From assembly GCA_032718475.1 (NCBI GenBank), contig JAUCBJ010006750.1, positions 75,245-139,244 of the forward strand: DNA of 64,000 nucleotides. The letters are read 5' to 3'. This document shows positions 21,369 to 61,626 of this stretch, piece by piece. Source of the DNA: Nemertoderma westbladi (Eukaryota; Animalia; Xenacoelomorpha). Position 1 is the stretch's first letter. Each line of letters starts with the position of its first letter. A program made the translations under genes and the position numbers. Below the pieces are notes generated by a model that was not told where the DNA came from, did no database searches, and saw only the letters and a list, made by a program, of their open reading frames with translations.

Positions 21369-22013
21369 GAGAAATTGAAAGAAGAAATGAACTGGTTAAA
21401 TTTGCGACAACCTGGCGATTATTTACGCAGGCTTTTCCCTGTTAAGTTTCTCTGTTTCAATAAGAAAGAACAACATTTTGCTACGATTTCCAGTCTCGGG
21501 GTTTTCCTGGTCGCTGAATTTTTTTCCGATATTGTCTATCTTATCTGCCTATCGGTTATATTTTCATAGACAGATTGACAAGCACACACTCAGACACGAC
21601 GCTGTTAAATTAGAAAACTGAAATAAAATCTCCTAATGGAAATATTTAACCAGATAATATGCATTATGTTTTGCGGACAAACTGTCGGACAGACAGGCAG
21701 TCAGTCCTATTGTTGCCGTTATTCCCAACACCATGGGGGAAAATGCCGATGCTGGTGGCGGAATTTTCAGACCATGGGATTCCGGCCAGTCACCAGATAT
21801 TGGGAGTGGAGAAGGAGTCTTTATCTGAGATGCAAGATTGCAGTAGGAAAAAAGTCGCATTGTTTGGATATAATCTTTTAATGTAAATTTTGAACCTTGA
21901 TCAATACTGAACCTTGATTGAGAATAATTTGGGCTTCCCCACACCAATATACCAAATATTCACAATAATACACGAACATAGAAATTGCTACAGTACATTA
22001 TTTAATTACCCAC

Positions 22014-23046
22014 TGTTCGCTTTTATATTTTAACCTAACTAATGATCCCCATTTTCCCTCAGTCCTAGTCCCAGTGCCGTAGTGTCAGTGTAGGTCGACC
22101 CTGTTGCTTGTCCATCCCACCCTTCCCGAACCCCGAAGGGATCGGTCATCAGGAAAGCGGTACAGCTTGGCTAAGGGCCGGTCAGGTCGGTCGACCCTGT
22201 TGCGTGTCCGTCCCACCCTTCCCGAACGCCGAAGGGATTGGTCATCAGGAAAGCGGTACGGCTTGGCTAGGGGTCTGTCGGTTTATCGCAGGTTCCCAAC
22301 CACCTAAGCTTTCCGAATCCTTTTCAGGCTCGTAGTCGCTTCGGTAGCCGAGAAGCTGCTCCGAACAGTCGGTAGGCCAGTAGAGTCCGGTCCTTTGTCT
22401 TTTGACCCTGTTGCGTGTCCGTCCCACCCTTCCCGAACCCCGAAGGGATCTGTCATCAGGAAAGCGGTACGGCTTGGCTAGGGGTCTGTCAGCCCGTTGT
22501 GAGTCCCAACTGTCGGAGGTTTCCGAGTCCCTTTCAGGCTTGTAGTAACGCCGGTCGTGGAGCCCACTCCAGGAAGACAGTCCTTGTCGAGCCCTTCCTT
22601 CGTCTAATCGGTCGATCCGTCACAAGTCCCCGGTGCAGTCAGCAAGCTTTCTGAGGATCTGTCAGTTCCCGTCGCAAATCCCTGACGCAATCAGCAGGCT
22701 TTCCGAGTCCCTTTCAGACTCGTAATAACTGCTGTTGGCCAGGAACCACTAAGGGTAGTCCTTGTCCCTAGGCCTAGCGGGTTACCAAAACTACCTCTAC
22801 AGGCAGTAGGAAGTTGGCTAGGCCTAATTAGTATCAGGTAAACCTGAGTACTGCTTGATTTTACCTCCCACCCTTGGCCCTTAAATATCTGATATGAGTC
22901 CCGTGCCCCATAAGTCGCCCCAATATTTGCCCGTAAATCGCCCCCAGTTCATTGAATATACCCAGATGCCATGTTCCCGCACCCAGTACTGATATTGGAA
23001 TATTCATATTCAACTCGCGTTATGAAAAGTTGAAATACCGCGAACA
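22014..23046 (-). repeat. 3' LTR of element A (~1033 bp)
   Basis: Minus strand starts TGTTCGC 2 nt after a G23 tract and ends AAAAGCGAACA, giving a 7-bp terminal inverted repeat. The end resembles the B/C LTR end AAAAGCGCGAACA. No partner LTR in the window to confirm it. Confidence 0.78.
22094..22490. repeat. Three ~90-bp direct repeats inside LTR A
   Basis: GACCCTGTTGC..CCCACCCTTCCCGAAC..TCATCAGGAAAGCGGTAC.GCTTGGCTA at ~22097, ~22193 and ~22404. Confidence 0.9.
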
Positions 23047-23048
23047 GT

Positions 23049-23071
23049 CCCCCCCCCCCCCCCCCCCCCCC
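23049..23071 (-). promoter_or_regulatory. Polypurine tract (G23) of element A
   Basis: C23 run on the plus strand, 2 nt from the LTR start TGT on the minus strand. Confidence 0.8.
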
Positions 23072-23317
23072 AATGACCTTCGTGAGGTCTATCGGTAGAT
23101 CGAGTTTGCGTAGGTCATTTCCCCATATAAAAAACCCAAATTTTATTATTGCATAGTCCTGATTAATTTGTCCTAGAGTTAGTTTACGTAGATATAAAAA
23201 ATAAATGTTCGATGTAAATGTCCATAGGATATCCTGGTCTTCTATTTTCTACTCTGATACGCTTTCCTTTTCTTCGCCCGTCTTCTCTCATCGATCACCA
23301 GTGCAGGTAGGGGAGCA

Positions 23318-24687
23318 TTATTGTCCATCGCGAGCATCGCTGCAGCTTGTCTCCTGGCGGCCCTTCCTTTGGATGGTAGCGGGATCATGTCCGTACGTCT
23401 CTCCAATTTCGAAGGGACCGAATAATCCAGCGCTTAATAGTAGATCCACATAATGGAATGGTAGTGTCGCTGCCGTATGGAGGCGTTCTGGGAACGAGAA
23501 GTATCCGCACGCCATCTCTTGCGCGATATTTTGAGCGCTTCTCCGCACTTTGGTCTTTACGTGGTTATTGGCGTATGTTTTAAACATTACCATATTCCCC
23601 ATGGTCATTGCGTCCTTAGTAGGACACTTAATGTTACATAGGGGGCTCGCGGAATGTCCACGGAAACCGCTTTTTGTGCAGAGGTTGTAGAGGGTTGGAC
23701 AAACTGATATGTCGTGGCCCGATATAGCGCAATAGGGACAGTAAAGTATCCCAAGGATCTGGAGACACGACTCGGTAACCCGATGTCTCCTGCCACGTGG
23801 ACACTGTTCCAAACTGCAGTTTCCACAAACATCAAGCTGCATCTCCCGGCCGAAGAATATCGGGATCGGTACGCTGGCTTAATACTCCCGCCATCTATCA
23901 CTCTTGGGGATAATTGCGGTAACCGGTAGCCCGCGGAACGCTGGGCTTTTGCGGAGTATGTTCTCGCTACGATATCCTTCCTTATATCCCGCCGGTCGCA
24001 TTCCGGGCGCCCGTTTCTGACGGTGGATCCACTCTGTTTGTTCGGCGTACCACCGGGTGAGTCTCATAGGGTCTTGTGGGACAGAGGGTGCCGTTGCCAC
24101 AGCTGGTCGGCGAAGGGGTGCCGGGGCGTTCACCGAAGGAATTCCGAGAAGGTCTACAGGGGTTGGAGCTATGCTGGGACCTTATGCAACCTGTATAGCT
24201 GAGCGGGTCCGCTGGGTACTCTTCTCCTCCTGGGAATGGATATGGAGACAACCTCTGGCATGTGTCGCCGAAGTTGCTAAGCGTGAAGGTGGTTACTAAC
24301 TCTCTAGCAGGACTGCCAAAGCCAAGCGGGGTGGTTACGCCCGCCTCTGTTGCAGGTTCAGCCGCGGCAATCCGTTTGGCGGCTGGTCCATAAGCGACTT
24401 CCGGTTTGAGTTGTCGTTTTGGGGTGGATAGCAAGATACCTTCTTGTAACCATAATTCCTTCCCATCCGATGATATCAAGGGTTCCTCTGCGCCAAGGAG
24501 ATCAGCAATCGTAGGGATGTCAAACGGTCTGTTATCATCCCAGGATGCGATAACGTTGTGCGTTTTGGTATCTCCTGGTGGGATATTCTCTACCGCCTTG
24601 AATGCGTGGTCGATAACAGTAGTAGAGGAAGAATGGTCCCCGACATAGTCCTCCCTAGCTTGTTCTATGGGAGATATCTCGGAGGAC
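23318..24687 (-). pseudogene. Element A ORF3, C-terminal part: Pro-rich linker and Cys/His zinc-knuckle cluster
   Basis: The frame is open from ~24687 into ORF 24479-23982, shifts into 24133-23879, then passes one in-frame stop into 23842-23318. Contains CPYCAISGHDISVC (CX2CX4HX4C), a degenerate CTKSGFRGHSASPLC and CGNC..C..H..C. Confidence 0.7.
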
Positions 24688-25609
24688 TATTGAAAATGCT
24701 CAATTTTGACAGATTTTAATGACCATCTGTCACCATCAGTATTGATTCGAATCGTTGCGTCAACCAATCATCGATATTCAACTACGCGTAACCTAACCTC
24801 ATGATGCATGCCTAACCCGGTTACTCTCCCTTTTGCCTCGCTACCATGACGGCGACGACGACGAACTAATATACTGAATGCCAAGTAATAATTATTCAAG
24901 ATCGATTTATTCATCATAACTGGTCGCAGATGTTTACAAATAGCTTGTGGTAGTATCAATTATAAATTATTGCTCATTGAATTCTATACTATAGCATATG
25001 TCACCAACGAGATCCAATTATTCTAATGATTTCGATAGCATAAAATGCATATTTATTATTACGAAATAAATCTAACTAATAATAATAATCTACTTGTTCT
25101 ACATACAGTATCAGTACAATAATGACAGGTTAATTACGTTTGAATATAAGATGGAATGATAATTAATGTTTAGATGTAGGGTATTAATTGTTGTGAGTAT
25201 GTGTTAGATATAGCAGTAATAGTGTTATTCGGTATGTAACATTATGAAACAATGTCTCATGTATACACTGTTGTGTTGCAACTATGTGTAGGTAAGTCAA
25301 TGTGTCAGTGTTAATATTGTATATTACATTTTTTATAATATATTGGTTCTACAGAGTGATGCTGGGTTTCAGCACTATTAATTTGACATTTTTTTATTGC
25401 GAAATTAGATTTACTGAAAAATTCCATGAATAAACTTTGCAATTATCACCATTTGTTTCTTGGGTGGAACTGTTGGTGTTTTGCTGTCATGTTGCAGATC
25501 ATCCTTCATATGCTGCCTATGGCGACTGATTTCACTTCTCTGCAAAATATTACACATATTTCCAGCATCTTTGAAATTTAGGTCTCCAGTTGTGATACTC
25601 GGAGCCTGC
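24688..25609. other. AT-rich segment interrupting or replacing the middle of element A ORF3
   Basis: Sharp drop in GC and loss of long reading frames between two coding-like blocks. No TSD or terminal repeats seen; boundaries are approximate. Confidence 0.5.
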
Positions 25610-26537
25610 TTAAATCTCTAGTTCCGGGTATGCACCATATATCTTGTTATAGTCCAGAAATTTCTGAGGTTTAAAGTCTATGCCGCCATTTAGCACTGCG
25701 AGGTAGCCGATACCGGATTTCGTTGGTCTCACTTCCCGGAATCCACGCATGAATTCTGTGGATCGCAACCAGGCTAACAGGGTTTGGGTGTCGACGAAGT
25801 GACTAATGGCGTTAAGGTCTTCTCGACGGTTTCTTCTGAAGGGAGCATTAGCGTAGTCGTTCCGGATATCCGCCTTTATATCCGACCCAATCTTACTAAT
25901 ATCGAAATCAAATAGGATCTGTTGGATCTCCGGTGGTAATAGCCAGACCGCTCTGGCTGTCCGCACCTCTTGTTTGGGTGTCGGGAAGATTCGACATATC
26001 AACACTAAACCATCTAGTGTTCCAATGATCGACCGTATTCCTTCGTCCCATACTTCTCCTGGTAGTCGTCGCGGTTCTGGATGACTGATATACGCTCCTC
26101 TCATAGCGTCGCCCTACATTCCGCCAGGTTTCCCCAGTGGGCGAGGTATGTACTCTTGTCGTCGACGAAACTTTGACATCGCGCCAACGTAATCGCCTTT
26201 GAGGTAGGCGTCGCATTTCCCTCGTTGTCGTATTGTCGTATATCAAACACCGGGATTTGTAGACGCTTCGCCGGAACGCATCCCAGAATGATAACTCCTC
26301 TCCTCCGGTTGCCTTTGCGTTCCATGTCCTTTTCAGGCTCATATTAACATCGGATAACCGGAGCTCTCGTAGATTACGGGAATCCGGTTCCTCCTGCCCG
26401 GAAAATTTAACGACTTGCACATTCTCTTTTAACAGGGTGTTCCATTTCGTATCAAAGTTAGGAGATCCAGGCTGTGGATAATCCAATAAATCGAGCGTGT
26501 TACGTAATTCGCCGAGAATTCGGCGATTTGAGTCCAT
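25610..26537 (-). pseudogene. Element A ORF3, N-terminal part: DEDDy (WRN/RNase D/Mut-7-like) 3'-5' exonuclease domain, frameshifted
   Basis: Removing an 8-bp tandem duplication (26225-26240) restores LIYDNEG (ExoI DxE). Downstream are LPPEIQQILFDFDISKIGSDIKADI (ExoII-like), FVDTQTL and SGIGYLA...DFKP. ExoIII was not found. Confidence 0.7.
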
Positions 26538-27069
26538 ATTCTAAATTATGTCCATTGCAAATTCAAATCAGTTAATTATAACTCCAGAAAGTCTGATTCT
26601 ATAGCGACTGCAGAATAATTCAGTTATTTGTAATTCAGTTTATTATTATTGCTATATAGGCATCTACCATCTTATTGCTACTACATTCAGTATTTACAGT
26701 TACTATAGCTATACATTATTTTCCAACCAGTTTTTTTACTTTTTATGTCCGCTTCTTTTTCAAATTCTTTCCTTTCTACATTTTATATTTTTTTTTTGTC
26801 TTTTTTCATTTCTCATATCATAATTCATTGTACATTTCATTATTTCTTTCCACATTTCATCATTTATTTCACATTTAATCATTTATTTCCACCATTACAT
26901 TGGGGTTATAGCCCCCCGGCTATCATTATTTGTTATAAGCACAGCACCAGGGTGCGCATCATTACATTTTCATCATCATATGCGTCATCATTCAGTTTAT
27001 AGTAGGGTTGTCTGTTTCTTTTCATCATTTCCAAACTACATTCAACCATCTTCTTTGGGAAATTTTCGT

Positions 27070-27500
27070 TGTGGAAGGGGTGTTTCGCGGCAATCTGGGA
27101 TCTACAGCTGGGCTAGTTACACCGCCTACGACCCAAACTGCACACGTAACGGACAATGAAGACGCTGGAAGTGAAGTCACGTGGAATGCACCAGGGACCC
27201 ACCAGAATAACACTCCCAACAACATATATCTCAGCCGACGAAGTCATGTGGGATGGGGTTACGCAACATTCTGGGATCTACAGCTGGACTCGTTATACCG
27301 CCTACGCCCCAAAATCCACGCAACGGTCCCACCAGAATAACCCGACTGAAAAACATAAAACCTCTATCGACGAAGTCATGTGGATGCACCATGGACCCAC
27401 CAGAATAACGCGATAGAGGGGGTGTTGCGCGGTAATCCGGCATCTACAGCTGGACTTGTTACACCGCCCACGCCCCGAACTGCACACGCAATGGACAACA
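27070..27500. repeat. Imperfect direct repeats between pol and ORF3 of element A
   Basis: GGGGT..CGC..ATCTACAGCTGG.CT.GTTA.ACCGCC.ACG at ~27078, ~27256 and ~27419; GAAGTCA.GTGG..GCACCA.GGACCCACCAGAATAAC also recurs. Confidence 0.85.
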
Positions 27501-27775
27501 CAATACAACACAATACAATGGATACAATGAATTCCACTTCAAATCTTTACCATTTCCAATAATCCAATGTAGTTGGTCCTGATGACCAAAATCAGGGTGA
27601 ACAATACATAAACTACCCTGCATCAGTCGAAACATCTGCAGGGTGACGCTGGACTCCACATAACACACGAGGAAACACAAATATCATTGCGTGGTTACAG
27701 TTGGTTTAAGGGGGGTCCATATTCATTGTCGGTAAATCACATTTTAAAAGAGTTTGTCAACAGGATGAGAAGGGT

Positions 27776-30700
27776 TTAAACGGGTTTAGCATTGTCACCA
27801 ATGTCTGCAGCAGGATCCGGAGTAGGGAACTTATCACCTCTCGTGGAGTCACCACTGTCATTGCCTTCAAGAAGGCAAAGCCTCTGGATAGGGCGTTGGT
27901 AGTGGCCCTTTTCCGTCAGTATCGTCACTGTCCTCACAAGTCCATCCTTGCTTGGGGTTATTTCCATGACTCGCGCCATAGGCCAGTGGACGCGGTCTTT
28001 AAGGTCTTCCTTTACAAGTACCATGTCGCCGACAGCGACATTCCGGTATGTGTTATTCCACTTCCTCCTGGTCTGGAGGGTTATGAGGTACTTCTGGGCC
28101 CAGATTCTCCACCAATGTGCTGCCAGCGCTTGGGCCTTTTTCCAGTTGGTGTGTCTCGCAATATCGTTGGGATCTGGGAACATTGCCTCCAGAAGAATGT
28201 TGGTCTTGGGTCTTCCAAGTAGATGGTTGGGTGTAAGAGGCTCCAGATCTGTAGGGTCATCGTGGATGGGTACGATTGGCCGGTTATTCAGGGTGGCTGT
28301 GATCTCGCAGAATGTTGTGCGAAGGGTGTTGTGGGTGACCTGGGTATCCCCTAACGCGACACGCATGGATTGTTTCACCAAGTTGATGAGTTTCTCCCAT
28401 ACCCTGCTCGTATGGGGTGCCAAGGGCGTTTGGAAGTGCCATTGTATATGGTGTTCCTTCCAGACATGGGATGCGGTTTCATCGGTGAACCATCCCTCGA
28501 TAGCCTCTCTGAGTTCCCTTTCTCCTCCCACAAAGTTCGTTCCATTATCGGAGTACATATGCCGGCATGATCCGTTGTTCACCACAAACCGACGCAGAGC
28601 GTTGATAAAGGCGTGCTAAAGGCGTGAGGTTTACTACGAGGTCCAGGTAAATCGCCCTTGACCTAAGGCATGTGAAGATGGCTCCCCAGCATTTGATGTT
28701 GGCTCGTCACTCGATGACTGTAAATGGTCCGAAACAGTCTACGCCGGTTACGTAGAATGGTGGTGAATCGGATTGCAGCCATGTAGCCGGTACGTCGGCC
28801 ATTCTTTGGGTGAGCGGTGGCGATAGGTATCACCTGCAGGGGAAACATCGTTTCAAGACTTTCCAGATCAGTGGCTGGATGTGGGTGATCCAATATCGTT
28901 GCCGGATGTTGGCCATAATCCAGTTCTGGTCCGCGTGATGGTTTTCCTCGTGACACTGCTGGATTAATAGCTTAGCTAGTGTTGACGTTCCAAGCAGAAG
29001 TGCCGGGTATTTGACTTCATATTCAACCGGGGCGTTCGCCATCCGGGTATTTAGTCGGATCAGTCCATCTTCCCCCATCATGGGTCTCAACTGGTAGACT
29101 GGGCTGTCAGGTTTCAAAGTCTTGCCCGCGTTGAGCTGTTCCCATTCATTGGGGAAACTTTCTTTCTGGATGTATCTCACAATACATTTCTCTGCAATAA
29201 TGAGTTCTTGTATACTTCGCCGAACTATCGGCTTGTTATCCTTCCACCGCAGGAAGTTACGAAGAGTCATGACGTGATGGATAAGACGCCTCATCGAGGA
29301 GGTTTGCTCTATCAATAGTTGCAAGGACGTGGCTGGTTGCGCAGTGGTCGCAACATTATAGTGCCTGCCCGAGTCCTTTGCAGGCTCAGTCAGGCAACTA
29401 TAGATTTCCACGGTGGCGCTTCCATGGACTTTGCAAATCTCCTTGTCGTCTTCCAAATATTTCCCACTATCTAGTTCGGGATCGAATCGGGTGCTCCAGG
29501 TTAGTTGTGGTTGCTTTAAGAATCCCGGGCCTGTGATCCAAAGTTTACTCTTACCGAGCTGTCGTGTGGTGGCGCCTCTGCTCGATAAGTCCGCTGGGTT
29601 TTCTTTTCCGTTTACGTGGTGCCACTGTTCTCGGTTGGTATATTGTTTTATTTCTGTGGCTCGGTTCGCTATGAACGTGGTGTGTCGCCGTGATGGTGAA
29701 TGGAGGTAGTAAAGCACGATACTCGAATTAACCCAGAAATGCTGCTATTCAATGGGGATTCTTAGGTTCCGCCTGATCATACGGTTCTGCCTCACGGCCC
29801 AGACTGCGGCCTGCAGCTCGAGTCTCGGGATTGTTGCCACAAATTCTCCGGATACCGTCTTGGCTTTGGAGAATAAGAAACTCGTATCACCGTTTCCATC
29901 CTGATTTAATCTTCTTAGAAATGTAACCACGCTGATTCCGGTATTCGATGCATCCGAGAAAGTATGGAGCTGGAATATATCGGTGGGTATCTTATCGAGG
30001 AAGAACGGTCAAGGGATCCGCATGAGGTGTAGCTGTTCGAGTTACTCCGTCCACTTCTTCCTTTTGGCACTGAGGTGTGGGGGGAGTTCTTCGTCCCATC
30101 CCAGTCCTTTGATCCACATTTCTTTGATCAAGTTCATTCCGGCCAATGTTACTGGGGATATGAAGTTTAATGGATCGAATATGGCGCTCTTTACGGATAA
30201 ACATCCCCTCTTTGTCATTGGTTTGGGCAGGGGGTTATGTTTGAAGATGAACTGATCCAGTTCTATGTCCCATTCGATACCGAGTACGCGGTGATCTACA
30301 CCCTCGGAAAATTTTGTTGTCGTCTAACCTAATTTCTTCCGGGAACCTTTCCATAAGTTCCTTATCGTGGGATCTAAACTTCACAAGAGGGAAACCTCCT
30401 CTCTTTAAACATTCCACCATTCCCATAGCCAGCTGATATGCCTCGTTGACATTATTGGCACCAGCGCATCCGTCGTCTACGTAAAAACATCTTTTGATGG
30501 TCTCTATGACTGTCAGAGGGAACTCATCTTCACACATAGTCGCTGTTTTCTTCAACATGTCGCTACATGCAACCGGCGAGTCCTTAGCGCCGAAGATTCT
30601 GACAATCATGCGCATTACGTCCACATCCTCCAAGGTGAGTTGGTTTATTTCTTGTGGAGTCAATGTTTTATCTGTCCATAATATACGTAGGCAATCTGAG

Positions 30701-33700
30701 TCTCTTGATAGCGTTCGGACCTGGTGGAACATCGCTTTGATGTCACATGTGAAGGCTATTTTTTTTTTCGGAACCTGATCAATATGCCGATCAGTGTACT
30801 GTAGATGTTGGGCCCGGTGTAAAGTTGGCTGTTTAAGGATTTGCCCTGGTACATAGCCGCAGCATCATTTACTACCTGGATTTTGCCGCCCTTCCGGGCT
30901 TCCACCACATAGTGGGTCGGGAGATAATACGTCCATCTAGTCCCCTGCAGTTCGTTTGTGGGCACCTTTTCCACCAATCCATCTTCCAAATAACCTTTAA
31001 TCACATTATTATATTTCTCTTTTGTCTCAGGTAGCTCGTTTAACCGGCGTAAGATACCTTTGGGCCTCCTTAGGGCCATGCTGGCATTATTAGCCATTGG
31101 TCTATCTGGGTCCTTCCAAAGCATGGGCGAGCACTAATGTCCGTCTTTGAATGTTGCCTGGTCAAGAACGTCCATACAATATTGATCTTCTTCGGACGGA
31201 TTCTCGTCCTTTTCAGCGAATTCTTGAGTCTCCAAGTTGAAATATTTTGTTATTTCTCGTTGGGTTTTTTCGGTTTCCAAGAATAAATCCTCATCTAGGT
31301 CGGTTGCTGAGCAGTAACCCACAGATGTTGCGTTCTCTTTGATCTGGCATTTCAGAAGATATGTATATGTGTCGGTAGTCTCTTCTTTGATGCCACAGAG
31401 TGTCCATCCCATGATAGTGCGCTCTGCATAGAAACCGTCGTCCGGCTTTACAGATTGGGCGATGTCTCCAGTCGGTATATGTAGTTCCGGTGTATCGAGT
31501 CCGATTAATAGCGTAATTCTGTTCACGTCCAACGGTGGGCATCATAGGTCCATATCTTCCTGATCTAACTGTATGAGGGGTGCGTATTTGGATGATTGTC
31601 AGAATCGCACTCTGAGATCGGTATGCACCAGAGCATTTTTAATCGTTAGTTTGACCTTTTCGTAACCTTTCATAACTCCTTCCATCCTGAGTTATACCTC
31701 CCCGGACTCCACTACTTTATGGTCCGTTATAGTCTGTATGGGTCGCTTGCAAGGTTCATAGTCTAGGCCTAGTTGTTCGAGGAAGTCCCTGTCTATGATA
31801 GTTCCGTCCGACCCATTGTCCAGGAACGCGAGTGTAGTTAGAGATTTTCCGACCCCTTGGATTCTTACCAGGATCACTTTAGCGAAGACCATATAACAGC
31901 AATTTATTAAATTGACCGTGGCTGATATGCTGGTCATGTGTGATACGTCAGCGGTGGTCTTGAACGGATTGGTATCTCTCCACTGAATCGTCCGGGTACC
32001 CTTGGAGACGTGGTTCATTTCTCCTCTCTGTTTGGATTCGATACGGAATGGTAGGGTGGTGAAATCGAAGTTTGCAGGACTGTGGAGGAGTGTATGATGT
32101 TGTAGGTCGTTACAAACCACGCAGCATGTCCTTTGGTCGCAATCCCGTACGTAGTGACCTGTTCCAAGACACCGGAAGCATCCTCGGTGTTTCATTATTG
32201 CCTCGAAGCGTGGAACGAGTTCGGCGAACTGGAATTTTCTGCAGAATTCCATCTTGTGTTTCTCCCCGCAGAAGAGACATAGAAGGGAGGTTGTGGTGCC
32301 TTCCCTCTTGGGTGCCCAATTAGCTAGATAACACGCCCATTCCTCAGCTGATATCGGTTCCTCATAGTCCTCGTCGTCAGAATCCTCGGCATCGTACTCA
32401 CTGGAGGGGGGCAGAATCTCGGTTTTGGAGTGGGTGCTCTGCTCCTAGAGTTGTTCTCTATTCCGTCTAACTTGGAGAGACTTTGTTTGGAGAACATGGA
32501 GTCGTTGATGGCTTCGGAATATCATCTAGGAATGCAGACATTTCTAGGAAGCTAGGATCCCGATCCGGGTGTCTGCGTCTGAGATCAACACATTTATAAG
32601 CCCATTTGCTTTGCAACCATCCGGGGAAATTCCGGGCAATCTGTCAGAGGTTTAGGATGTTGCTTACTTGTTCCTCCTTGTTCAATGGTTTTAAAGTATA
32701 ATAAGCGTCTTTCATTGAGTCCGAAAACTCTAGGATATTCTGTGGATCCCCTAGGGATCCAGCGTCCTGTATCAGTTTTCAAGCGTCTTATTGATTATAG
32801 TTCCAATGTTACCATATCTCTTATCGAGAGTTTTCCACGCATCGTAGTACGCTGCGTGAGATCCTCCTTCGAAACATTTAACAATTCGGCGTGGTTTGTC
32901 ACCCAGATATTGAGATAAATATACCAGTTTTTCCGCGTCAGTTATATCCGTTGATCCGATCTGAGCAAAGAACCGTTTTTTAAATCCAAGATAATCAACG
33001 GGGTCGCCCTCGAAGGTACGGATCTCCATCTTGGGCATAGCTAGGCGGTTCTCCAATGCTCGAATGATGCCGACGTCGTCCGAACTGGGATGACTAGGAG
33101 GATTGTAGTTACTAACACTCTCTCCCATATATGATGGATCGATAAGAGGTGGAGTTTTAATAATGACGCAGTTATGGATTTTCGGCGTGGATGTGAATGG
33201 ATTATTGGATCGAGGGGTGGCATCCCGTTCCGAGTCCCTTTCAGGCTCGTACTGGGGAACGCTCGGAGCCGTAGGGTTGGAAGGGAGATAGGGTTCCTCG
33301 TTTTTAAGTGTAACCGGTGGGGGATGGAATGCCGGTGCTTGTGCCGATAGTGTGGACCGTATAACTGGCGGGAACTCGGGTTTCGAAGGTTTTGCAGCCG
33401 GTGGCGTAAATGACTTTTCTAATTCTGGGACCGGAATTGGTTCATAGTCTTGTTCTATACCCCTTTCCCAGTCATCGTACAGTTGAAGGTCCCATTCTAT
33501 GAGTGCGGCTTCGTAGTCTGCGAGTTTAGCAATATCCGCATTCTTTTTGTGAATAAGAATCGCTTGGGCCTCGGCATTTCGTTTATGCATTTCGGCCTCT
33601 TGTTTACGTATCTCGGCCTGTTGTTCGGCCTCTACTTTACGCATTTCGGCCTCTTGTTTTTGTCATTCGGCCTCTTGTTTACGTATCTCGGCCTGTTGTT

Positions 33701-34035
33701 CGGTCTCTACTTTACGCATTTTGGCCCCTTGTTTTTGTCGTTCGGCCTCTAGTTTACATATCTCGGCCTGTATTTCGGCCTCCTGTTGATGTCTTTCCTC
33801 TGCTAGTATGTCCTGTTCGATCTGTAATTGGACGTATTTGTCCTCCATACAGGCTTTAAGGGCCAATGCCCTCTGTTCTCGTAGCTGATCTCAGAGTGGC
33901 TGACCCCCTTGGGAGCTGCGCGCTGAACTGGATATCTCGCTCCTGGCGCTGGAGTGCTGGTGCCTCGAGGACCCGGTTCTCTTTCTTGGAACCAATGTCC
34001 TGGTACCGGAGGTCCGTACGGATTCCGCGTCCGCC
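27776..34035 (-). pseudogene. Element A gag-pol polyprotein (BEL/Pao), many stops and frameshifts
   Basis: Coiled-coil repeats AEIRKQEAE; gag core PKMEIRTFEGDP; zinc fingers CFRCLGTGH..C..C..HHTLLH; protease AFLDNGS; RT YVDD; RNase H TFSDAS and IPRLEL; NPADLSSRG; integrase SDNGTNF and PLTPNHLL. Confidence 0.96.
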
Positions 34036-35239
34036 TGTAAAAGCTTTTGTGGGATATAACTGGCCCTTTTCCTTCGTAATCCAGTTTTTCCCCAATGCGC
34101 TCAAATACTCTAAAACTGCCAGATTCGAATGGCACAATCTGCCCGCTGGTTGGCTGATTTGCTGTACGTATGGCCTCTTTGTTCTGTTCGATCAACCAAT
34201 CAGAGCGATGGTCAACCAATCAGAGCGATTCCGCCTTGTGTTAGCTACGGGCTTCAAAGGCTAGGGAGGTTTGGCATTTCGACATTCGTGGAACCTATGG
34301 AATCTGGAGCTCTGCCAATAAGAGCTTTTCCTCTTTGTGTTGAAAGCTACCTGCAACAGCTCACAGAATTCAGTGTGTGTTGGTTTTCCATGCCAGAACA
34401 TCGGCTGTGGAATGATTCTGTGTTTCAGACTTTAGCCAAACATTAGAACGGCTTTGATTACCGGAACATATAACTGTTATCAAACAAACCATACAAATCA
34501 TACCATACATACCTGGCACTTTATATCATACTGTGCATACCTTTCACCGCATTATTTTACTGTTATTTACTGTCGGTTATTAATTGTATCAGTTGATGGA
34601 ACATTGTTATATTTGGATAATATCGATAAAGAATCATAAAACCCCCATCTTCTTGATATACTGAAGGTAAGAGACCGGTTACATATAGCGATTGCAACTC
34701 ACATTATATTGGTTTTGGAGTGAATCTAATGCTATTTAATAGGCACTACATGAGTCAATTGCTGTTCTCTTTATATGTGATCAAATTCAGTGAAGGTCGG
34801 CAGATTGGTATGCAGTATTGTGCGGTAGTGTACATGAATGTTACCGATAACTAAGCATCTCCTAAAGAATGCGCCTTATACGTGAATCAATAGCCATCCC
34901 GTTGTGTTTAGTATAAGTCATAACTCTGTTTACATATTTAGAGCGCCACGTCCTAAAGGAACTGTTAATATTTCCCGAAAGTGAATAATATTTGTCAGAG
35001 ATTATATATTAACGATCAATCGAATAATACAGTAGGCTTACACTGCAATATAGGGTCAGAGCTTCCGAATCCAGTCTCCCGGGTATATCCAGCGGGTGAA
35101 TGGTCGCGCAATAGGCTGGCTTCGGCTAATGTAGTGTTTATTTGTATCAAATACTTGTCATAGGCTAAAGTCGATTTATAATCTAGAAGACATATAAATT
35201 TGGCAGGTTAAACTGCTAAAGGTCTTAAAAGCGCGAACA
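34036..35239 (+). repeat. 5' LTR of element B (1204 bp)
   Basis: Starts TGTAAAAGCTTTT and ends AAAAGCGCGAACA; has CCAAT boxes (ACCAATCAG twice); homologous to 44471-45684 and to the C LTRs. Confidence 0.93.
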
Positions 35240-41407: not shown

Positions 41408-43060
41408 CAACATACGGAGTGGGTGTGTGACTATATTATTTTGCATATTTTATTATTTTTATATTTATGTATGTATTATTATGTAATTTTATTATAATCG
41501 TTTTCTTTAATTTTATTTAGTCGAATATTATTTTAGCAATTATTTAGTAGATTAGTGCAATATATTAATGTTTATTACTTAATTACTTATATATTATATA
41601 TTTAGTGCGACGGCGAGAAATAATTATTTTTCTCTTTCCTTACTGTCCGTATCATATTATAAATACGTGACTACAGTAAGATGAAATATCCGTACTTATT
41701 AAAGTACAATAAAGCTCCTACTATATTCAAGTATTATTGGTAAGCAGAGTATTAGGAATGCAAAGTTCAGATCCTCGTGTCTCGGCTAAACCAAGCTCTG
41801 GGTAGACCTTGGAAACGACTTGCCTCTTCTCACTGACATTGCTTCGTGCGATATTGCTCTCATACCGTATATTAAATAATACATATAGTAGCGTGATGTC
41901 CCTTTAACAGTAGCGTAAAACGCAAAATAAATCTGTTAAACCCTTTGACCATCTGTAATTCTAGTCGATTAAGATATCGCGGCACCCACCGATATACTTG
42001 AAAGACAAATTCTAGAATCAGTGGTTAACGTCCCCAGACAAGTTCTGGAATAAATCGGTGCCCATCTCAAATATTAATTATTAATATTTCAAATCAATAA
42101 TCAAAATCTGTAAAATTCAGATCCTTCAACAATTTCTAGTCGATTAAGATATCGTAGCATTTACCGATATTCTTAAAAAGACAATTGTCATAGAATTAAG
42201 GATCTTGTGTCCCCAGACATGTTCTGGAATCAAAATATGTCAATTTAATTTCAAATAATAAAATTTCAGGGAATAAATTCTAAATTCATGCCTTTTAATG
42301 AATTTAATAAATTGCCATTTTTACGCAATTTATAACATTCCCAAAATTCCATTAATTAATAGATCAAGGGAGCGGAGATTTATCTTATTATGCGTATGAG
42401 TGTGCGAAAGTCTCCCAAACATAGTCAATAGCCGATAAAATTCATAAAGTCATGTATAAAACAGAACATTGACTATTAAAGAATTACTATTAAATAACAT
42501 CCCAGATCTGTATGCATTGGAATTACCCTAATTCTACCGCTAGCTTTGCATAATGTCACCATAGCAACAACCACGCTAGAATTAGAATTGAGTTAAAAGA
42601 ACAATAGAAAGCTTGTCCCATTGAATAGCATAGGGAATAAATAGTGCACTGATAGTATCCAAGGATACATAATAATAAGTGACATTCTGGAAGGCATTGA
42701 CTAACGGACAAGTGACCCGAGTGTGTGTAATTTGTGACAAGTTGTGTGTGTGGTACTTGTGAGTTTATAGGCGAATGTTACTACTAAGGTGTGTTTACAG
42801 TAGCTAGTCGCAATCGTAAAAGTAACCTAACTCTCCAAGGAAAACCTGAAGTACATCTAAGCCTTTGGGACGGACAGTCGAGTGACTTGTGCCGGTTGTC
42901 GTTGTCGTTGTGCGGCTACGTCGTTGGCGAAAGTACAGCGGCGACGACACATCGGCGCTGAGGATCTCGTACTGTCCGGGGGTTAATTGGAGTAGGCAGC
43001 GACGCTCGCTAGCCTGAATATAAACTCCTTATAATGTGGATAAACTCATATATAGCAGAC

Positions 43061-44440
43061 ATGATGGAGTTGATAGCAGATGTTCTTGGTATCGGGGAGC
43101 GATATACTCTACTTTTGCAAGCGTTTGTTGATAGCTTAATACGCGGCGACGTTAGTCCAACTGCTGCGGAGGACGATGGTCGTTATATCGAACCGCCAAT
43201 GTCCCAAGAGCAGCTCGCGCGCGAGTTGGACTATAGAAAATTCGCTGCTCGATATACGCAGCGTAATGGTACGTATGTGGTCTTCTTAACTACTGGTCAT
43301 CCTATCGATTTACACAATACGGACTATGTCGACTATATATCCTGCCCAGCGGAGTCGGAACCATAAACTGAAATTCGAATGCGAAAATTCTATTCGAAAT
43401 CGACTCGAAAGAAAAGACACTAAAGAAACAAATGGACGCGGTAACTCCAACGTATATTTGGAATTCTTGATAGAAGCATTGTAACAACAAATAAATATCA
43501 CCCGCGTTTCCCCTACCAGACGTGCGTCTTTGGTATTATTACGATAAATGTCCTAGACCCAGCCAATAAACGGAAAGACATAAACATCCACGGAAACGTC
43601 GTGTTAAACACAGTTGTGTTCGTTATATTTACTGGAGTTTCGAGCGAAACTTGTTTGACGTATCACCTATGCTCACTCGGCTCTAACGATCCTAGAGTAA
43701 ACCTACGATCAGAGTCCCGGAATACTCGGTCAAACCTCCTCATTCCTTAGTTGGACCTCAGACCTGCGATCCTGGTGGTGTCGCGGATCCTCGCGGACGG
43801 TATTCACTGTTCAAGATCTAGTGCTACCCTAACAATTAATCGGTAACACTCCGACAGTGATTTCTAGCTAGCCGCCCATCTTACCTAGCTGGATTATGAC
43901 GCAGACACCTAATATCATTATCCAACCGTATGGTCGTCCCGTTTAACGCGATACAACCCTTCATCAAAGTGAAGGAGAGCGTTGTACGAAACGAGTTAAA
44001 CGCTATTCTATAAAGATCAAAAAAGAAACCTGCGTTTGTTCAGATAAACGTAAGTTATAACAGTAAGTCCAATCGATAAACGAATTGTCTTTATCTCAGT
44101 TCGATTGTGAAATCCAGAATCTCTAAGAAGATATCGCACTTAGACAACCCCATTCTCTGCGAGAGTTTTTGGATGAACGTATCCAGCTACGAGCGGAGGA
44201 AAATCAGCTCGAGGAGAAGCATATCGAAACGGCGGATACCCCGACCACAATCCTACACCTTCTGATGCAATCATATTGCACCCTTCACCCAGGAGTTATG
44301 GCCCTCCTAGTAAAGTGGCTCCCCCCAAAGAGAAAAAGACTCTTGCTAGCCTCAAAAAACTGCGTAAACGCCGTCTGCGTAAGAAAGACTAACTGTTTAG
44401 AGTATCTTTATGTTTTAGAAACTGTGATTTTTATATTTTA
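43061..44440 (+). pseudogene. Element B ORF3 remnant, unknown product
   Basis: Homologous to C 46838-48441; many third-position synonymous differences in the first ~90 codons and in the HPRFPY..TCVFGII block. Confidence 0.6.
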
Positions 44441-45684: not shown

Positions 45685-46811
45685 CTGCCAATTTTAGGTG
45701 TCTTTTTGTATATCAATTATTTAATGTACTGAAGGTACATCAGCCGAAGCCAGCCTGTGCGCGACCATTCACCCACAGTTAAGGGAGACTGGATTCGGAT
45801 GCTTTGATAGTGATTGCAGTGTATACCTACTGTATCATTCGATTGATCGTTAATATATAATCTCTGACAATATACTTACTTTCGGGGAAATATTAACAGT
45901 TCCTTTAGGACGTGGCGCTTTAAGTATAAAACAGAGTTATGACTTATACTAATCACAACTGGATGGCTACTGAGTTTCGTAAAAGGCGCATTCTTTAGGA
46001 GATGCTTTATTAACCTTCACACTACTTCACACGACTTCACACTACTTCACACTACTGCGCACTGATCTGCCGACCGTCACTGAATTTGATCATATATAAG
46101 GAGGATCGCAACTGACACATGTAGGGATTATGAAATAGCATTCAATTCACACAAAAACCACTATAATGTAAGTCGCAGTTGCTACCGGTAAACCTGTTCC
46201 TCTAACCTTTAGTAATCAAAGAGATTGAGGGTTTTATGATTATTCATCGATATTCTCCAAATATATCAGCAATATATACTAACATAACACCAATTAATAA
46301 CAGAACCAAATAATGCGGTGAACAGTCAGTATGTGTAGTTGAATCGCGTTGCATAGTGCAGCGGTGTGGCGGTGTGCTGCGTTAATAGTTTTACGTTCCT
46401 TTGATCAAAGCCATCTGATGTTTCTGAGGTTTAGGTCAAAGTCTGAAACTTCCACAGAAGTACAGAAGAATCCCAAGCTGGTGTTCTGGGCTTAGAAAGA
46501 TACACACACTGACTGAATTGCCTGAGTTTCTGTAGGTATGGTACAACACAAAGTGAAAATCGCTCTGATTGGTCGAGCGAGCCAAACAAAGAACAAAGAA
46601 AGCTCCACGCTGGCATTAAATCAGCTGACAGATTGCGTCATCTGAGTCATCTTTTAGAGTATTAAGCAAATTGCGGAGAAAATGGCTTGTTATGTCCGCT
46701 AAAGCACACATGCAGACATAGCGGGTAAAAATGGCTTGTTATGTCCGCTAAAACACCTACACAGTATATTGCGGAGTAAAATGGCTTGTTATATCCGCAA
46801 AAGCTTTTACA
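45685..46811 (-). repeat. 3' LTR of element C (terminal 32 bp missing); PPT at 46812-46821
   Basis: Matches 61697-62823 with no length difference and about 10 substitutions by eye. Three U3 repeats of GCGGA(T/C)ATAACAAGCCATTTT. Confidence 0.96.
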
Positions 46812-46837
46812 CCGCTCCCAGAAAATGGGATTTAATT

Positions 46838-48441
46838 CTATAAAATATAAAAAATCACAGTTTCTAAAATATAAAAATACTCTAAACAGTTAGTCCTTCT
46901 TACGCGAATGGCGTTTATGCAGTTTTTTGAGGCTAGCAAGAGTCCTTTTCTCTTTGGGGCGAGCCACTTTACTAGGAGGGCTATAACTCCTGGGTGAAGG
47001 GTGCAATACAATTGCATCGGAAGGTTTAGGATGACGGTCTGTGTATCTGCCGGTCGAGGTACTCGGTTGATCAGTATCAACCTCAGTGGAACGAGGTTGA
47101 ACAACCTTCAGAGCGCGTTTCAAGACAGCAGCTCTTACTGGCCCCTGACGATTTGTCTGCACAAGAGCGGTAGGTGGACTGTGTGTAGTGAGAAATTTCC
47201 TCGGTTTGATGGTTCTTTCCGACTCGAGTTCTCGGGCTCTGTCGAAATCGATATGCTTCTCCTCGAGCTGATTTTCCTCCGCTTATCGTTGGAAGCATTC
47301 ATCTAAAACTCGTTTAGAGAGTAGGGTCGTCCAAGTTCGATATCTTCTTAGAGATTCTGGATTTCCAGATCGAACTGATATAAAGCTAATTCGTTTACCG
47401 CTTGGACTTGTTGCTGCAATTTACGTTTTTCTAAGCAATCGTAGGTTCCTTTTCCGATCTTTTATCGAATAGTGTCCAACGCGTTTCGTACAACTCTCTC
47501 CTCCACCTCGGTGACAGGTTGTATCGGGTTAAACAGGGACGATTATACGGGTTGAACGGCGATATTAGGTGTCCGCATCCCAATCCGGTTAGGTATGATG
47601 GGCGAATATCTAGGGAGCCCACAACCGGAGTGCCACCGACTAATTGTTCGTGTAACACTAGATCTTTGAACAGTGAGTAAGCTTGGGAGGATCCGTGATA
47701 CTATTAGGATCAAGAGTCTGAGGTCTCACCAGGGAATGAGGAGGTCTGACCGAGTATTCCGGAACTCCGATCATGGGTTTATTTAAGGATCGTTTGAGTC
47801 GAGCGAGCGTAGATGATACATCGAACAAGTTTCGCTCAAAACTCCCGTAAATATAGCGAGTAAAACTGTGCTTAGCTCAACGTTTCCACTGATGTTTATG
47901 TCTTTCCGTTTGTTGGTTGGGTCTAGGACATTCATCGTAATAATACCAAAGACGCACGTCTTGTAAGGGAAACGCGGGTGATCTTTCTTCAATTTTACAA
48001 TGTTTCTCTCAAGAATTCCAAATATACGTGGGAGTCACTGCGTTTATCCGGTTCTTTAACGTCTTCTCTTTCGAGTCGATTTCGAATAGAATTTTCGCAG
48101 TCGATTCTCAGTTTATCGTTCCGACTCCGCTGGGTATGATATTTAAATAGGACCATTTCCCTTTTGGTGTCGACATCGTCCGTATCATGTAAATCGATAG
48201 GATGACCAATAGTTAAGAAGTCCATATATGTACCATTATGATGCGTATAGCGAGCGGTGAATTTTCTATAGTCCAATTCACGCGTGAGTTGTTCCTTTGA
48301 CATTGGCGGTTCGATATAACGGCCATCTTCCTCCGTAGTAGGTTGACTAACGTCGCCGCGTATTAAACTATCAACAAACGCTTGCAATGGTAGGGTATAT
48401 CGCTCCCTGATACCAAGATCATCTTCTATCAACTCAGTCAT
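46838..48441 (-). pseudogene. Element C ORF3 remnant, unknown product
   Basis: Chain of same-strand ORF fragments (48441-47995, 47992-47783, 47658-47431, 47104-46838) ending just before the PPT; homologous to B 43061-44440. Confidence 0.6.
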
Positions 48442-50135
48442 AGCTGCTATATGAGTTTATCGATATTATAATTAATCATAATTAGGCTAGCGGTTGTTGC
48501 TGCCTACCCCTCAATGCCCCCGGACAGCGCAAGATCCTCAGCGCTGATGTACTGTCGCCGCTGTGTCTATCGCCAACATAGTAGCTACACAACGACAATA
48601 ACAACCAGCGCGAGTCACTCCACTGTCCGTCCCAAGGGCTCAGATTTATTTCAGGTTCTTACTGCAGAGGTAGGGCTACTTTCACAACTGCGACTCGCTA
48701 CTGTAAACACACTTTAGTAGTAACATTCACCTATAAACGCACAAATTCCACATAACTGTCACAAACCGCACACATTCGGGCCATTTGTCCGTTAGTCAAG
48801 TGCCTTCTAGAATGCCACGTTATTATTATGTATCCCTGGATACCAGCGGTGTGCTATTTATTCCGTATGCTATTCAATGGGGCAAGCTTTTTATTGCTCT
48901 TTTAACTCGCTTCTAATTCTAGTGTGGTTGTTGCTATGGTGACATTATGGAAAGCTAGCGGTAGAATTAGGGTAATTCTCATGCATACAGATCTGGGATG
49001 CTATTTAATAGTAATTCTTTAATTGTCAATATTCCCCTTTATACATGATTTTCTGAATTTTATCGGCTATTGACTATATATTGGAGATTCTCGCACACTA
49101 ATACACTTAATAGGGTGAATCTCCGCTCCCATGATCTATTAATTAATGGAATTTTGGGAATGTTATAAATTGCATAAAATGACAATTTATCAAATTCATG
49201 AGAGGATATGAATTTAAATTTATTCCCGTAAATTTTATCATTTAATATTAAATAGACACAATTTTATTCCAGAGCATGTCTGGGGACTTAGGATCCTGAA
49301 TTCTGGGAAATTTGTCTTTTTAAGAGTATCGGTAAGTGCTACGATATCTTAATCGACTAGAATTTTAAAGGATCTGAATTTTAACAGATTTTAGATTTTC
49401 TAGAGTTAACTTGTAAGTATTTACTCTATTGTATTTGTTTGACAGATTTTATAAATGTTAATAGTTAATATTTAAGATGGGCACCGGTTTATTCCAGAAC
49501 TTGTCTGGGGACGTTAACCACTGATTCTAGAATTTTGTCTTTCAAGTATATCGGTGGGTGCCGCGATATCTTAATCGACTAGAATTACAGATGGTCAAAG
49601 GGTTTAACAGATTTATTTTGCGTTTTACGCTACTGTTAAAAGGACATCACGCTACTATATGTATTATTTAATATACGGTATGAGAGCAATATTGCAAGAA
49701 ACAATGTCAGTGAGAAGAGGCAAGTCGTTTCCAAGGTCTACCCAGAGCTTGGTTTAGCCAAGACACGAGGATCTGAGTTTTGCATTCCTAATACTCTACT
49801 TACCAATAATACTTGAATATAGTAGGAGCTTTATTGTACTTTAATAAGTACGGATATTTCATCTTACTGTAGACACGTATTTATAATATGATACGGGCAG
49901 TAAGGAAAGAGAAAAAGAATTATTTCTCGCCGTTGCGCTAAATATATATAATATAATTAAGTAAGTAATAAGACTAATATATATTGCACTAATCTACTAG
50001 ATAATCGCTAAAATAACATTCTACTAAATAAAATTAAAGAAAACGATTAGAATAAAAGTACATAATAATATATACATAAATATAAAATAATAAAACATAT
50101 AAAACAATATGGTCAAACACCCACTCCAGACGCTG

Positions 50136-56100: not shown

Positions 56101-58361
56101 TTGCGCATGAAATACTTCAGACCTAACAGGTTGACACATTGTTACAGGGGGTGGTGGTATACCCTTTTGTATATTTACTAATGTATCACGTTCTAACGCG
56201 ATATTCTGCTGCACTTCTTGCAACTCTAACCTACTTTCCCTTACTGTTCCCTTGAACTGTTGAACAGTCTCCTGCATCTGCCCGAGCAGGAGATTCATCC
56301 CCCGCCGCCCCTCATCCACCCACTCGACCGCCGAAGAGGGAGCCGCCAACGCGGGTAGACGAGGGACAACGGGCGACAAATCGGTGATATCTCGCTTGGA
56401 GTCCAGGACAGGAACTGTCTCAGGGGCTGTTCTGCTGGGCACAGGTAGTTTAGTGCTGTGCAAAGGGAATTTAGAGTTGGGTTCTGGAAGTACAGGGGTC
56501 TCTATCACAGAGGGGGTGGCTTCGAGAACAGGCCTAATTATTTCAGGCTCATCTACTATAGTAGGGAGTCTTTTTACTCTAATAATTTGGTCTGTGGGTT
56601 CTGTACTACCTAAGTCCGTGCTAGCTAGCTGCCTTCTCACAGCTGGGGGCAAATCAGGCAATTTCTGACGGTGGGGCATTCTTCTAGGCCTGCTGGGACG
56701 AGATCTATTTCCTCCGCCTTCAAGATCTGTTATATCGCCTTCATCCGATGATGTAAAGCCCTGTCGCTTGGGAGTAGATTGACTTATCATCTGCATCTGA
56801 CCAGCTGTTATCTGTTTATCTATGTAGTCTTGCTTCTCTTGAAGATTTTCCAACTCTAGTTGGGTGATCTCTTCAGACGCCCTCCGTTCTGCTTCTGCCA
56901 CTGCTATCTTTCTTTCCGCTTCTGCCGCTTTTCTTTCCGCTTCTGCCGCTGCCATTGCCGCTTTTCTTTCCACTTCTGCCGCTTTTCTTTCCACTTCTGC
57001 CGCTTTTCTTTCTGCTTCTGCCGCTGCCTCTGCCACTTTTCTTTCCACTTCTGCCGCTTTTCTTTCCGCTTCTGCCGCTGCTACTGCCGCTGCTGCTGTC
57101 TTTCTGTCTTCTATACGTTTTTTCTTTACTTGTTCTTCTTGGACACTAGCGATGCAGCTGCTTTCATCAAATTTAGCTTGGTTCGCAGCTAACATTTCCG
57201 CATCTAATGCGTCCAACACAAACTTGGCTCCTTCCCTATTAGGGCGAAGTCCAGCCAGCCGTCTCCTCAACTCTTCGTCTCCTATAAATCGTTGATAGTC
57301 CGACAGATAGATGTCAATAGCATCCTTCTTCTGAGGTTTCTCTAATGTAACCTCGCTTTCCACTTGAGAAAAGGCAGCGTCTGTTGATTCTCCATGGGTT
57401 GAGCGCTCAGTTAGCTGAATTTTCCACTGGGTCGTTCCTTGAACCTTGAGACTCACCCGTTGGAACCAAGTCTTGACGGCAACTTGCAACGACGTGTCTT
57501 GGGTTCTCTTCGAAGCTTCCTCAAAGGCTGATAGGAGGAGTCTGATTCTTAGGATTCTTACTCGAACTTGATAAAGCAGCTCTCCCTGCTCTTGAGGTCC
57601 TTGGTGTTGTTGAAACAGTTGTTCCTCTAATCGCTCCAAAGAGCTGAAGAATCCCTGTACATATCCTGCTGCCGACCTCTTCCACACAGCTGGATCACTA
57701 GTGTCCTTTGTCACTCCATCCTGTATAAGTCCTCCCAGGCAGCTTCCGATAAGTTAAACGGGAGTCCGGGTCCGGGGAAGTTCCATTGCGTCTCGACAAT
57801 AGTCTTCAGTTCCTCCCTTGTGTATCCCGCATAACTGTCCTTGGTCGATCGCTTACTTCTCGCCCAATCGATTTGGTGTTCCTCCACCGCAATCAATACC
57901 CTAGTGAGTACAGCTGCAGGAAGAATGAGAAGTGGATCCGAATAAACCGCATCTGCCATCCTTGCTCCGCTACTACTACTACTAGGATCGGCATGCTGCA
58001 TTGCAGCTGCATTTTTAAGAATGCTGTGCCGGCTTGTCAACAAAATTGCTCCGCGCTCGGGTGTCAACTCTACAGTATCTGAACTACTGGAGCTATCGGG
58101 CCGCTGAGAAATAAGTTCTCGGCTCGGGTGTTGCTGTTGTTTAACAGCTGCCTCTTGGTCCCGCTTGACTTGAGCCCGAGTGCCTCTGATAGACCTACGG
58201 TGTTTGACTAGCCTAGGGTCTGATACTACTACTGGAGGGATGACCTTTCTTACAGTAGGAGGTGAGTTGAACTTCGGTCTCAAACGTTCCGCACTCCTAT
58301 CTGGATCACAGATGGTTGTATCTAGGAGACTGTCTGACAGGTTTTGCTTTGTGTCAGACAT
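50136..58361 (-). pseudogene. Element C gag-pol polyprotein (BEL/Pao), about a dozen stops and frameshifts
   Basis: ATG at 58361 (MSDT, as in B); frameshift ~57714; 1033-aa gag with AAEAERK coiled-coil and three Cys/His fingers; protease ALLDSGS; RT SDIEGMFLQV and YMDD; RNase H HVFGDAS; integrase DLFGP, SDKGTNF and ALTPAHFL. Confidence 0.97.
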
Positions 58362-61594: not shown

Positions 61595-61626
61595 ATAACT
61601 ATTACAACTTACTATACGACTAATTC

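Follow-up and report, generated by a model that had tools for sequence, protein, structure and literature searches.

A decayed accessory gene in a BEL/Pao retrotransposon of Nemertoderma westbladi that likely encoded a DEDDy exonuclease with zinc knuckles

A stretch of 64,000 nucleotides from the Nemertoderma westbladi assembly GCA_032718475.1 (contig JAUCBJ010006750.1, positions 75,245 to 139,244 of the forward strand), the whole of which is called the window here, contains three decayed BEL/Pao long terminal repeat (LTR) retrotransposons, designated elements A, B and C, besides a satellite of 63-nt units (1-20579). Element A carries an extra gene between the stop of its integrase open reading frame (ORF; 27776, minus strand) and its polypurine tract (PPT) and LTR (23071 and 23046), on the same strand as pol, and this is a real but decayed accessory gene of a BEL/Pao family, likely coding for a DEDDy exonuclease with zinc knuckles. 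An initial annotation had placed a same-strand gene in this env slot, and the positions of the integrase stop, PPT and LTR on which it relied were verified. The parts of element A surrounding the extra gene are:

21711..34116, minus strand: element A, decayed BEL/Pao LTR retrotransposon (from Pfam domains; other copies exit the window at 34079/34116)
27776..33662, minus strand: gag-pol, fragmented, with DUF1759, zinc knuckles, protease, reverse transcriptase (RT), Peptidase_A17/RNase H, integrase and DUF5641
26538..27775, minus strand: non-coding spacer from pol to the extra gene, with three repeats spaced by about 170 nt and an AT-rich stretch
23049..23071, minus strand: PPT, a G run
21711..23046, minus strand: 3' LTR of 1336 nt, TG...CA, with internal 94-nt repeats and a terminal inverted repeat that is imperfect

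The host of the extra gene is a BEL/Pao element. Its Pfam matches lie in order (DUF1759, E 1.1e-8; Peptidase_A17, E 8.5e-35; DUF5641, E 6e-29), and the succession gag, protease, RT, RNase H, integrase, with Pao-specific domains, is that required of BEL/Pao elements, the Belpaoviridae of the current classification (PMC8742986). The RT active site reads YVDD (30483) and RNase H has DAS (29954), both of which are motifs given for Pao/BEL (PMC554778; here and below, what is said of cited papers other than PMC8742986 refers to the available part of each). Element A also has the PPT ahead of a TG...CA 3' LTR that is expected of BEL/Pao. The LTR, at 1.34 kb, is longer than the 0.2-1.2 kb of the ICTV profile and has three 94-nt and three 59-nt internal repeats, and the three repeats of the spacer (27074-27498, about 170 nt apart) are GC-richer.

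All of the motifs named in the initial annotation (LIYDNEG, LPPEIQQILFD, ISKIGSDIKAD, FVDTQTL, GIGYLA and CX2CX4HX4C) were located on the minus strand where it had put them. It had also described a single ORF of about 750 codons, of which the same-strand gene stood but the single frame did not, as the gene falls into five frame pieces (99+71+166+294+221 codons, about 850 in total) with six inner stops (26103, 25612, 25552, 25534, 24770 and 24689, plus 23881, which starts the last piece) and a 566-nt insert. The window copy is thus dead, through frame breaks, stops and an inserted piece of another repeat. Its features, some of them placed by comparison with a related protein, P0002, are:

26232..26537, minus strand: N-terminal piece, which begins with the ATG at 26537 and runs as far as CLIYDN, the likely ExoI strand (rank of the ExoI block; frame of the coding model)
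26249-26232, minus strand: CLIYDN
26225..26240, minus strand: 8-nt tandem duplication, a frame break within ExoI (a contig of another copy ceases to match at 26232)
26232-26218, minus strand: YDNEG, overlapping the 8-nt tandem duplication
26026..26238, minus strand: second piece, with YDNEG, then a long loop; stop at 26103 and second frame break at about 26022-26026
25523..26020, minus strand: putative exonuclease core, with LPPEIQQILFD, ExoII KIGSDIKAD, DTQ, GIGY and candidate ExoIII (28% identity over 132 residues with P0002)
25939-25907, minus strand: LPPEIQQILFD
25900-25868, minus strand: ISKIGSDIKAD
25798-25778, minus strand: FVDTQTL
25714-25697, minus strand: GIGYLA
24875..25440, no strand assigned: AT-rich (28% GC) 566-nt piece of a different, more uniform repeat inside the gene
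23990..24872, minus strand: linker piece, Pro/Arg/Thr-rich near its end, with stops at 24770 and 24689 (frame of the coding model)
23318..23983, minus strand: zinc-knuckle cluster and conserved C-terminal tail, stop at 23320 (P0002 match)
23827-23801, minus strand: Cys/His cluster
23740-23699, minus strand: perfect CX2CX4HX4C knuckle (CPYCAISGHDISVC)
23680-23654, minus strand: Cys/His cluster, a degenerate knuckle

A codon model trained on the gag-pol ORFs of the window and applied to the frames of the extra gene weakly favoured the proposed frames at 26550-26250, 26100-25650, 24900-24150 and 23850-23400. The gene has no transmembrane segment (top 19-residue hydropathy 1.33) and no env- or fusogen-type Pfam match, and so does not qualify as an env-like third ORF (ORF3). 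A splice-acceptor-like stretch (two AACTGAAT, then TTATTCTGCAG), seen by eye only, lies at 26608-26640, about 70 nt ahead of the ATG of the extra gene.

When the exonuclease piece was compared by phmmer with 1.84 billion proteins, two of them matched, a repeat artefact and P0002 (E 2.3e-4), an unnamed ENA protein of 648 residues which is an intact single ORF from a 9449-nt contig and forms a singleton cluster. The exonuclease piece is 28% identical to P0002 over 132 residues, identity in both halves is 28-29%, and P0002 searched back on the window found the exonuclease piece with E 1e-9. Residues 494-635 of P0002 also match the knuckle piece and tail (23821-23381; E 4.7e-8), and this knuckle half was not in the original query. 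Local scores against P0002 were 133 for the exonuclease piece and 109 for the knuckle piece, each reached by 0 of 1000 shuffles, while the N-terminal piece (531/1000 shuffles) and the linker (950/1000) were not similar to it. Since P0002 matches both pieces, the two halves are one gene: to judge from these alignments, the exonuclease half and the knuckle half belong to one predicted protein in the same order as in P0002, and the knuckle cluster is its C-terminal half. P0002 has an Exo-like domain, a low-complexity linker, a knuckle cluster and a conserved tail in the order of the window gene, and differs from the window copy in its intact single ORF and its shorter loop after ExoI.

The artefact, P0001, is a bacterial-looking repeat protein with 26 repeats of one 46-residue match, and a bacterial contig (L001) was rejected as its match is broken by a stop and lies on no matching ORF. 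Word-based protein searches added no relative (the exonuclease piece found 0 of 266 candidates, P0002 only itself among 7989 and the knuckle alignment only P0002 among 1265), nor did scans for related loci in metagenomes, viruses and prokaryote genomes; PHROGs and NCBIfam gave no useful match.

P0002 is probably a DEDDy exonuclease. Its residues 20-280 scored 0.94-0.95 in Atlas, with 25 of 30 matches in the PF01612 set and all 10 of the best named matches in one family or clan, and hhalign aligned it to E. coli RNase D plus the Klenow exonuclease domain with a probability of 52% (E 1.5e-4; 0/20 shuffles). Its weak phage matches (E 5-10) are to one Bacillus-phage gene in 7 of 8 records, of which 3 of 7 are annotated as DNA polymerase. 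As the window piece has no match of its own while its relative carries the DEDDy signal, the DEDDy label is transitive, and the DnaQ fold of the window gene is inferred through P0002. The fold proposed earlier for the exonuclease-like N-terminal half thus has support in the relative, and only indirect support in the window piece.

The order of motifs, ExoI, DP..KVG.N.K.D, DTQ and W...Y, is retained. ExoII is clear in the alignments, and its type is that of WRN and PolA, not that of RNase D, KIGSDIKAD aligning with KVGSNIKAD of P0002, which itself aligned to KVGQNLKYD of Klenow. ExoI (a hydrophobic strand with D-x-E) is present as LIYDN(E) across the frame break; with a 19-residue block built from four known or related domains, this site came first among 581 local places; across the 127,882 places of the window it came 11th, or 57th with P0002 left out of the block. 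Since it ranks first locally, LIYDN is the best ExoI candidate, despite the roughly 55 extra codons that follow it. Two other ExoI candidates were rejected: AYISHPE, which the search with P0002 on the window had suggested but where the contigs of other copies vary in length (about 26022-26026) and the other frame has the better third-position counts, and ISVIQNRD, which has better spacing but lacks D-x-E and is outside the four top-ranked places. A candidate ExoIII lies beyond the stop at 25612 (W at 25588, then stop-Y-F-A-E at 25552-25538), in register with W...YIYCE of P0002 in a global alignment, and from these motifs the catalytic centre would be D-E-D-E. An HRDC domain was not detected in P0002.

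Other copies were sought in four DNA runs, X1 to X4, which have one organism label, come from three studies (X1 and X3 from one sample) and gave short contigs; the best-matching run may be the source of the window itself. No RNA run was listed as containing the stretch. The initial annotation had asked whether other copies lack the region, and contigs of all four runs cover it in many variants. Between 20600 and 34400, 30 of 30 bins were covered in X1-X3 and 29 of 30 in X4, and the exonuclease part is matched by up to 33 contigs per place, so that the region is multi-copy. The extra gene is thus carried by many copies and is not a private insertion. No joint skipping from pol to the LTR was found among the 15 of 90 joints listed, the window shows nothing like an LTR repeat in the interval that separates pol from the extra gene, and a single-copy flank contig stops at 21739 in three runs, which fits the 3' LTR end of element A. 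A 1916-nt contig from X4 joins the exonuclease and knuckle halves, matching 25816-25614 and 24617-23409. The two matches lie 197 nt apart in the contig but 997 nt apart in the window, and the junction of the contig is in phase.

Other copies depart from the window sequence at the 26103 stop and vary in length near 26232 and 26022-26026, which indicates that these breaks are not family-wide, and among the contigs of the four runs no intact copy was demonstrated. Third codon positions account for 12 of the 20 listed differences between copies in the exonuclease part (p 0.013) and for 19 of all 37 (p 0.018), the 37 being tool-selected places from 40 of 118 and 40 of 2276 entries, with AT-rich and non-coding ones omitted. 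In the second piece (YDNEG frame) 5 of 7 listed differences were on third positions, and the excess was absent from the N-terminal piece (3/7) and the linker (2/7).

The AT-rich piece at 24875-25440 has loose contig ends at both borders, and a 367-nt contig whose depth is 2332 matches it apart from 12 differences; for this high-copy repeat there is one contig at depth 2332-4167 in X2/X3, 28 in X4, and in X4 a contig matches exactly the 24875-25440 span with flanks unlike those of the window. The loose ends and the uniform, high-depth contig indicate that in this copy the segment is a fragment of another repeat, and clear terminal repeats or a target duplication were not found around it. It could instead be read as an intron, with an AG at its downstream border, but this is less likely because the main form of the repeat has other flanks.

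Elements B and C share the layout of element A (pol, AT-rich spacer, extra ORF, LTR). Taken together, the extra gene is very probably a DEDDy-derived gene of element A's family, and the following points count against that view. P0002 is the only relative. The initial annotation had proposed a profile check against DNA_pol_A_exo1 and WRN_exo; Pfam PF01612 gave no match for the window pieces, and P0002 (E 0.035, 14.4 bits) fell below the curated cut-off of 23.6. The hhalign probability for P0002 rises to 91% with a phage PolA exonuclease domain added, a figure that includes a template selected because P0002 matched it, and for the exonuclease core of the window alone it is 0.3-2.4%; the window exonuclease piece has no Pfam, NCBIfam, PDB or usable Atlas match. 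The 55 or so codons between ExoI and the next strand are extra in comparison with P0002, and pairwise alignment misses ExoI. The ExoIII candidate by itself was reached by 136 of 1000 shuffles, ends in E and not D, and has a stop at the Tyr position. The in-phase junction in X4 has a chance probability of 1 in 3, and the same contig has 10 additional nt over the knuckle half, so that it is not one open frame. The window has no second copy of the LTR of element A, whose 5' LTR and primer site are thus missing from it. Among the contigs listed none runs unbroken from pol into the extra gene, and the link between the two therefore depends on this assembly and the matching layout of B and C. Single-sequence AlphaFold models had a predicted local distance difference test of 31.4 and 33.2 and were unusable, and the empty Foldseek search with one of them carries no weight either way.

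The knuckles of P0002 match retroviral nucleocapsid knuckles (E about 1e-4), and PDB sequence searches matched knuckles only and no exonucleases. The Trypanosoma brucei protein TbRND was matched through its knuckle part only (E 0.86), and orthology has no support. TbRND is an RNase D in which four CCHC fingers bind the RNA being trimmed, a combination called very unusual (PMC7797062), and it shares with the extra gene an Exo domain followed by CCHC knuckles. It differs in being a cellular enzyme and in its 28-residue linker, against several hundred residues here.

By analogy with TbRND and from the nucleocapsid-like knuckles, an intact extra gene would encode a DEDDy-type, two-metal 3'-5' exoribonuclease, joined through a flexible linker to CCHC knuckles that would grip the element's own RNA and so hold the exonuclease on its substrate. 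It would trim 3' ends of element RNA or clear replication leftovers, probably within the element's own RNA-protein particle; the substrate would be RNA rather than DNA, and the protein might be expressed from its own subgenomic RNA. We give this whole scheme, in which a knuckle-anchored exoribonuclease works inside the particle on the RNA of the element itself, an even chance of being right.

Mature PIWI-interacting RNA ends are protected by 2'-O-methyl groups, a point that speaks against the same protein serving instead in counter-defence, by binding or degrading host small RNAs or precursors that target the element. The nucleocapsid-like knuckles of P0002 likewise point to the element's own RNA, and we consider counter-defence unlikely, although the element family has many copies and the host DEDDy relatives Mut-7, EXD1 and Maelstrom act in small-RNA silencing (PMC5408684). 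Also against it, small RNAs cover the DEDDy ORF3s of rotifers themselves, with no clear link to copy number in the available text (PMC5408684). Rather less probable is a catalytically dead DnaQ domain serving as an RNA-binding scaffold in the manner of EXD1 and Maelstrom, with the knuckles as a second nucleocapsid-like chaperone. The E in place of D at ExoIII, in P0002 (YIYCE) and in the window candidate, the unusually long loop after ExoI and the Pfam score under the cut-off would fit such a scaffold, but in P0002 each of the four positions is acidic (D-x-E, D, E) and the window copy retains D-x-E and the D of ExoII at about 30% identity.

That the exonuclease-knuckle gene and the LTR form a different or non-autonomous element abutting the pol of element A appears improbable. 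With the 5' LTR missing, there is no way to pair the LTR with pol, none of the listed contigs covers 27776-26537 unbroken and P0002 offers no genomic context; on the other side are the absence of an LTR-like repeat between pol and gene, the continuous coverage with no region-skipping joint among those listed, and the shared layout of B and C. Least probable of these explanations is that the N-terminal half is not DnaQ and its motifs are a chance likeness or remote relic: the window piece does lack a direct family or fold match, but P0002 falls with the DEDDy exonucleases by three methods that are in part independent, and the motif order is kept. A more far-reaching proposal is that BEL/Pao captured an active exonuclease-zinc-knuckle protein of an undescribed family, widespread beyond rotifers and moving between unrelated LTR lineages, which attacks the small-RNA defence of the host or completes the RNA primer of the element itself, and this we regard as doubtful.

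The rotifer clades Juno and Vesta, in which the closest known precedent occurs, are Ty3/gypsy-like. An accessory or exonuclease-like domain may also have been reported in nematode Cer elements (Malik 2000 or Frame 2001). The initial annotation had pointed to DEDDy ORF3s from bdelloid LTR elements, and these are indeed published: Juno and Vesta carry DEDDy ORF3s with a DEED motif, shared also with Athena/Terminons, for which no earlier retrotransposon report was known to those authors in the text available (Rodriguez et al. 2017, PMC5408684). Later reviews cite only the rotifer case in their available parts (PMC5718144, PMC6431247, PMC6338049). Compared by published description only, the rotifer ORF3 and the extra gene are both separate, sense-strand third ORFs after pol, DEDDy-like and without a transmembrane segment, whereas the host here is BEL/Pao. 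The catalytic motif also differs, being DEED in rotifers while here the third acidic position is D (window and P0002) and ExoIII is likely E, and of Cys/His motifs only a Cys-His-Cys in Vesta2/5 is mentioned in the available text for rotifers, against a C-terminal CCHC cluster here (PMC5408684).

Within BEL/Pao, env-like extras are the only kind in the sources consulted (PMC8742986 and, in their available parts, PMC3118150, PMC554778, PMC2774666, PMC9094657, PMC13524379 and PMC11662393). Tas, Cer7/Cer13, roo and Atlas virus share with element A coding capacity between integrase and 3' LTR (PMC8742986, PMC9094657, PMC13524379), but theirs is for membrane fusogens, unlike the extra gene with its nuclease and knuckle motifs and no hydrophobic segment. 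DnaQ-fold nucleases have been captured repeatedly by mobile elements, as in Dada (DEDDy) and KolobokD (DEDDh), which differ in being DNA transposons whose exonucleases are proposed to act on DNA ends (PMC3706591, PMC9587614). A literature search, which reached few subscription papers, found no BEL/Pao-borne exonuclease. DEDDy ORF3s of retroelements are as such already published. The extra genes of BEL/Pao are described as env-like, and a nuclease and knuckle gene in that place would extend the rotifer case to a second LTR superfamily and, if true, the Exo plus CCHC design, very unusual according to the TbRND paper (PMC7797062), would be used by retroelements also. With the intact P0002, the question left open in 2017 as to the activity of retroelement DEDDy ORF3s and their RNA target becomes testable without handling the element itself.

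The initial annotation had also likened the LTR end of element A to that of B and C, but over the last 200 nt the score of 29 does not rise above chance, as the best of 200 shuffles reached 30. With that likeness at chance and the primer site missing, the idea of primer trimming is not tied to self-priming in element A. Only the 8-mer TGTTCGCG, found at 23046, 35239, 45684, 61594 and 61665, is common to the LTR start of element A and the reverse complement of the LTR ends of B and C, and it is possibly a shared integrase attachment end.

The decayed extra ORFs of elements B (42500-44400, plus strand) and C (46900-49000, minus strand), which lie between integrase and LTR, are unrelated to the gene of element A, with no tblastx, P0002 or Pfam match, and when compared with each other one piece had a third-position excess (18/36, p 0.03) and the other pieces did not. 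Element C (45685-62823, minus strand, about 17 kb) adjoins B tail to tail, and is young since its LTRs (62823-61697 and 46811-45685) are 99.1% identical over 1127 nt; inverted LTR-like copies lie in its leader at 60934-62316. The satellite at 1-20579 has about 246 units of 63 nt and is interrupted at 1173-2231 by an RT-encoding ORF (RVT_1, E 7.7e-24), and a 169-nt tandem repeat of 2.4 copies lies at 63423-63820.

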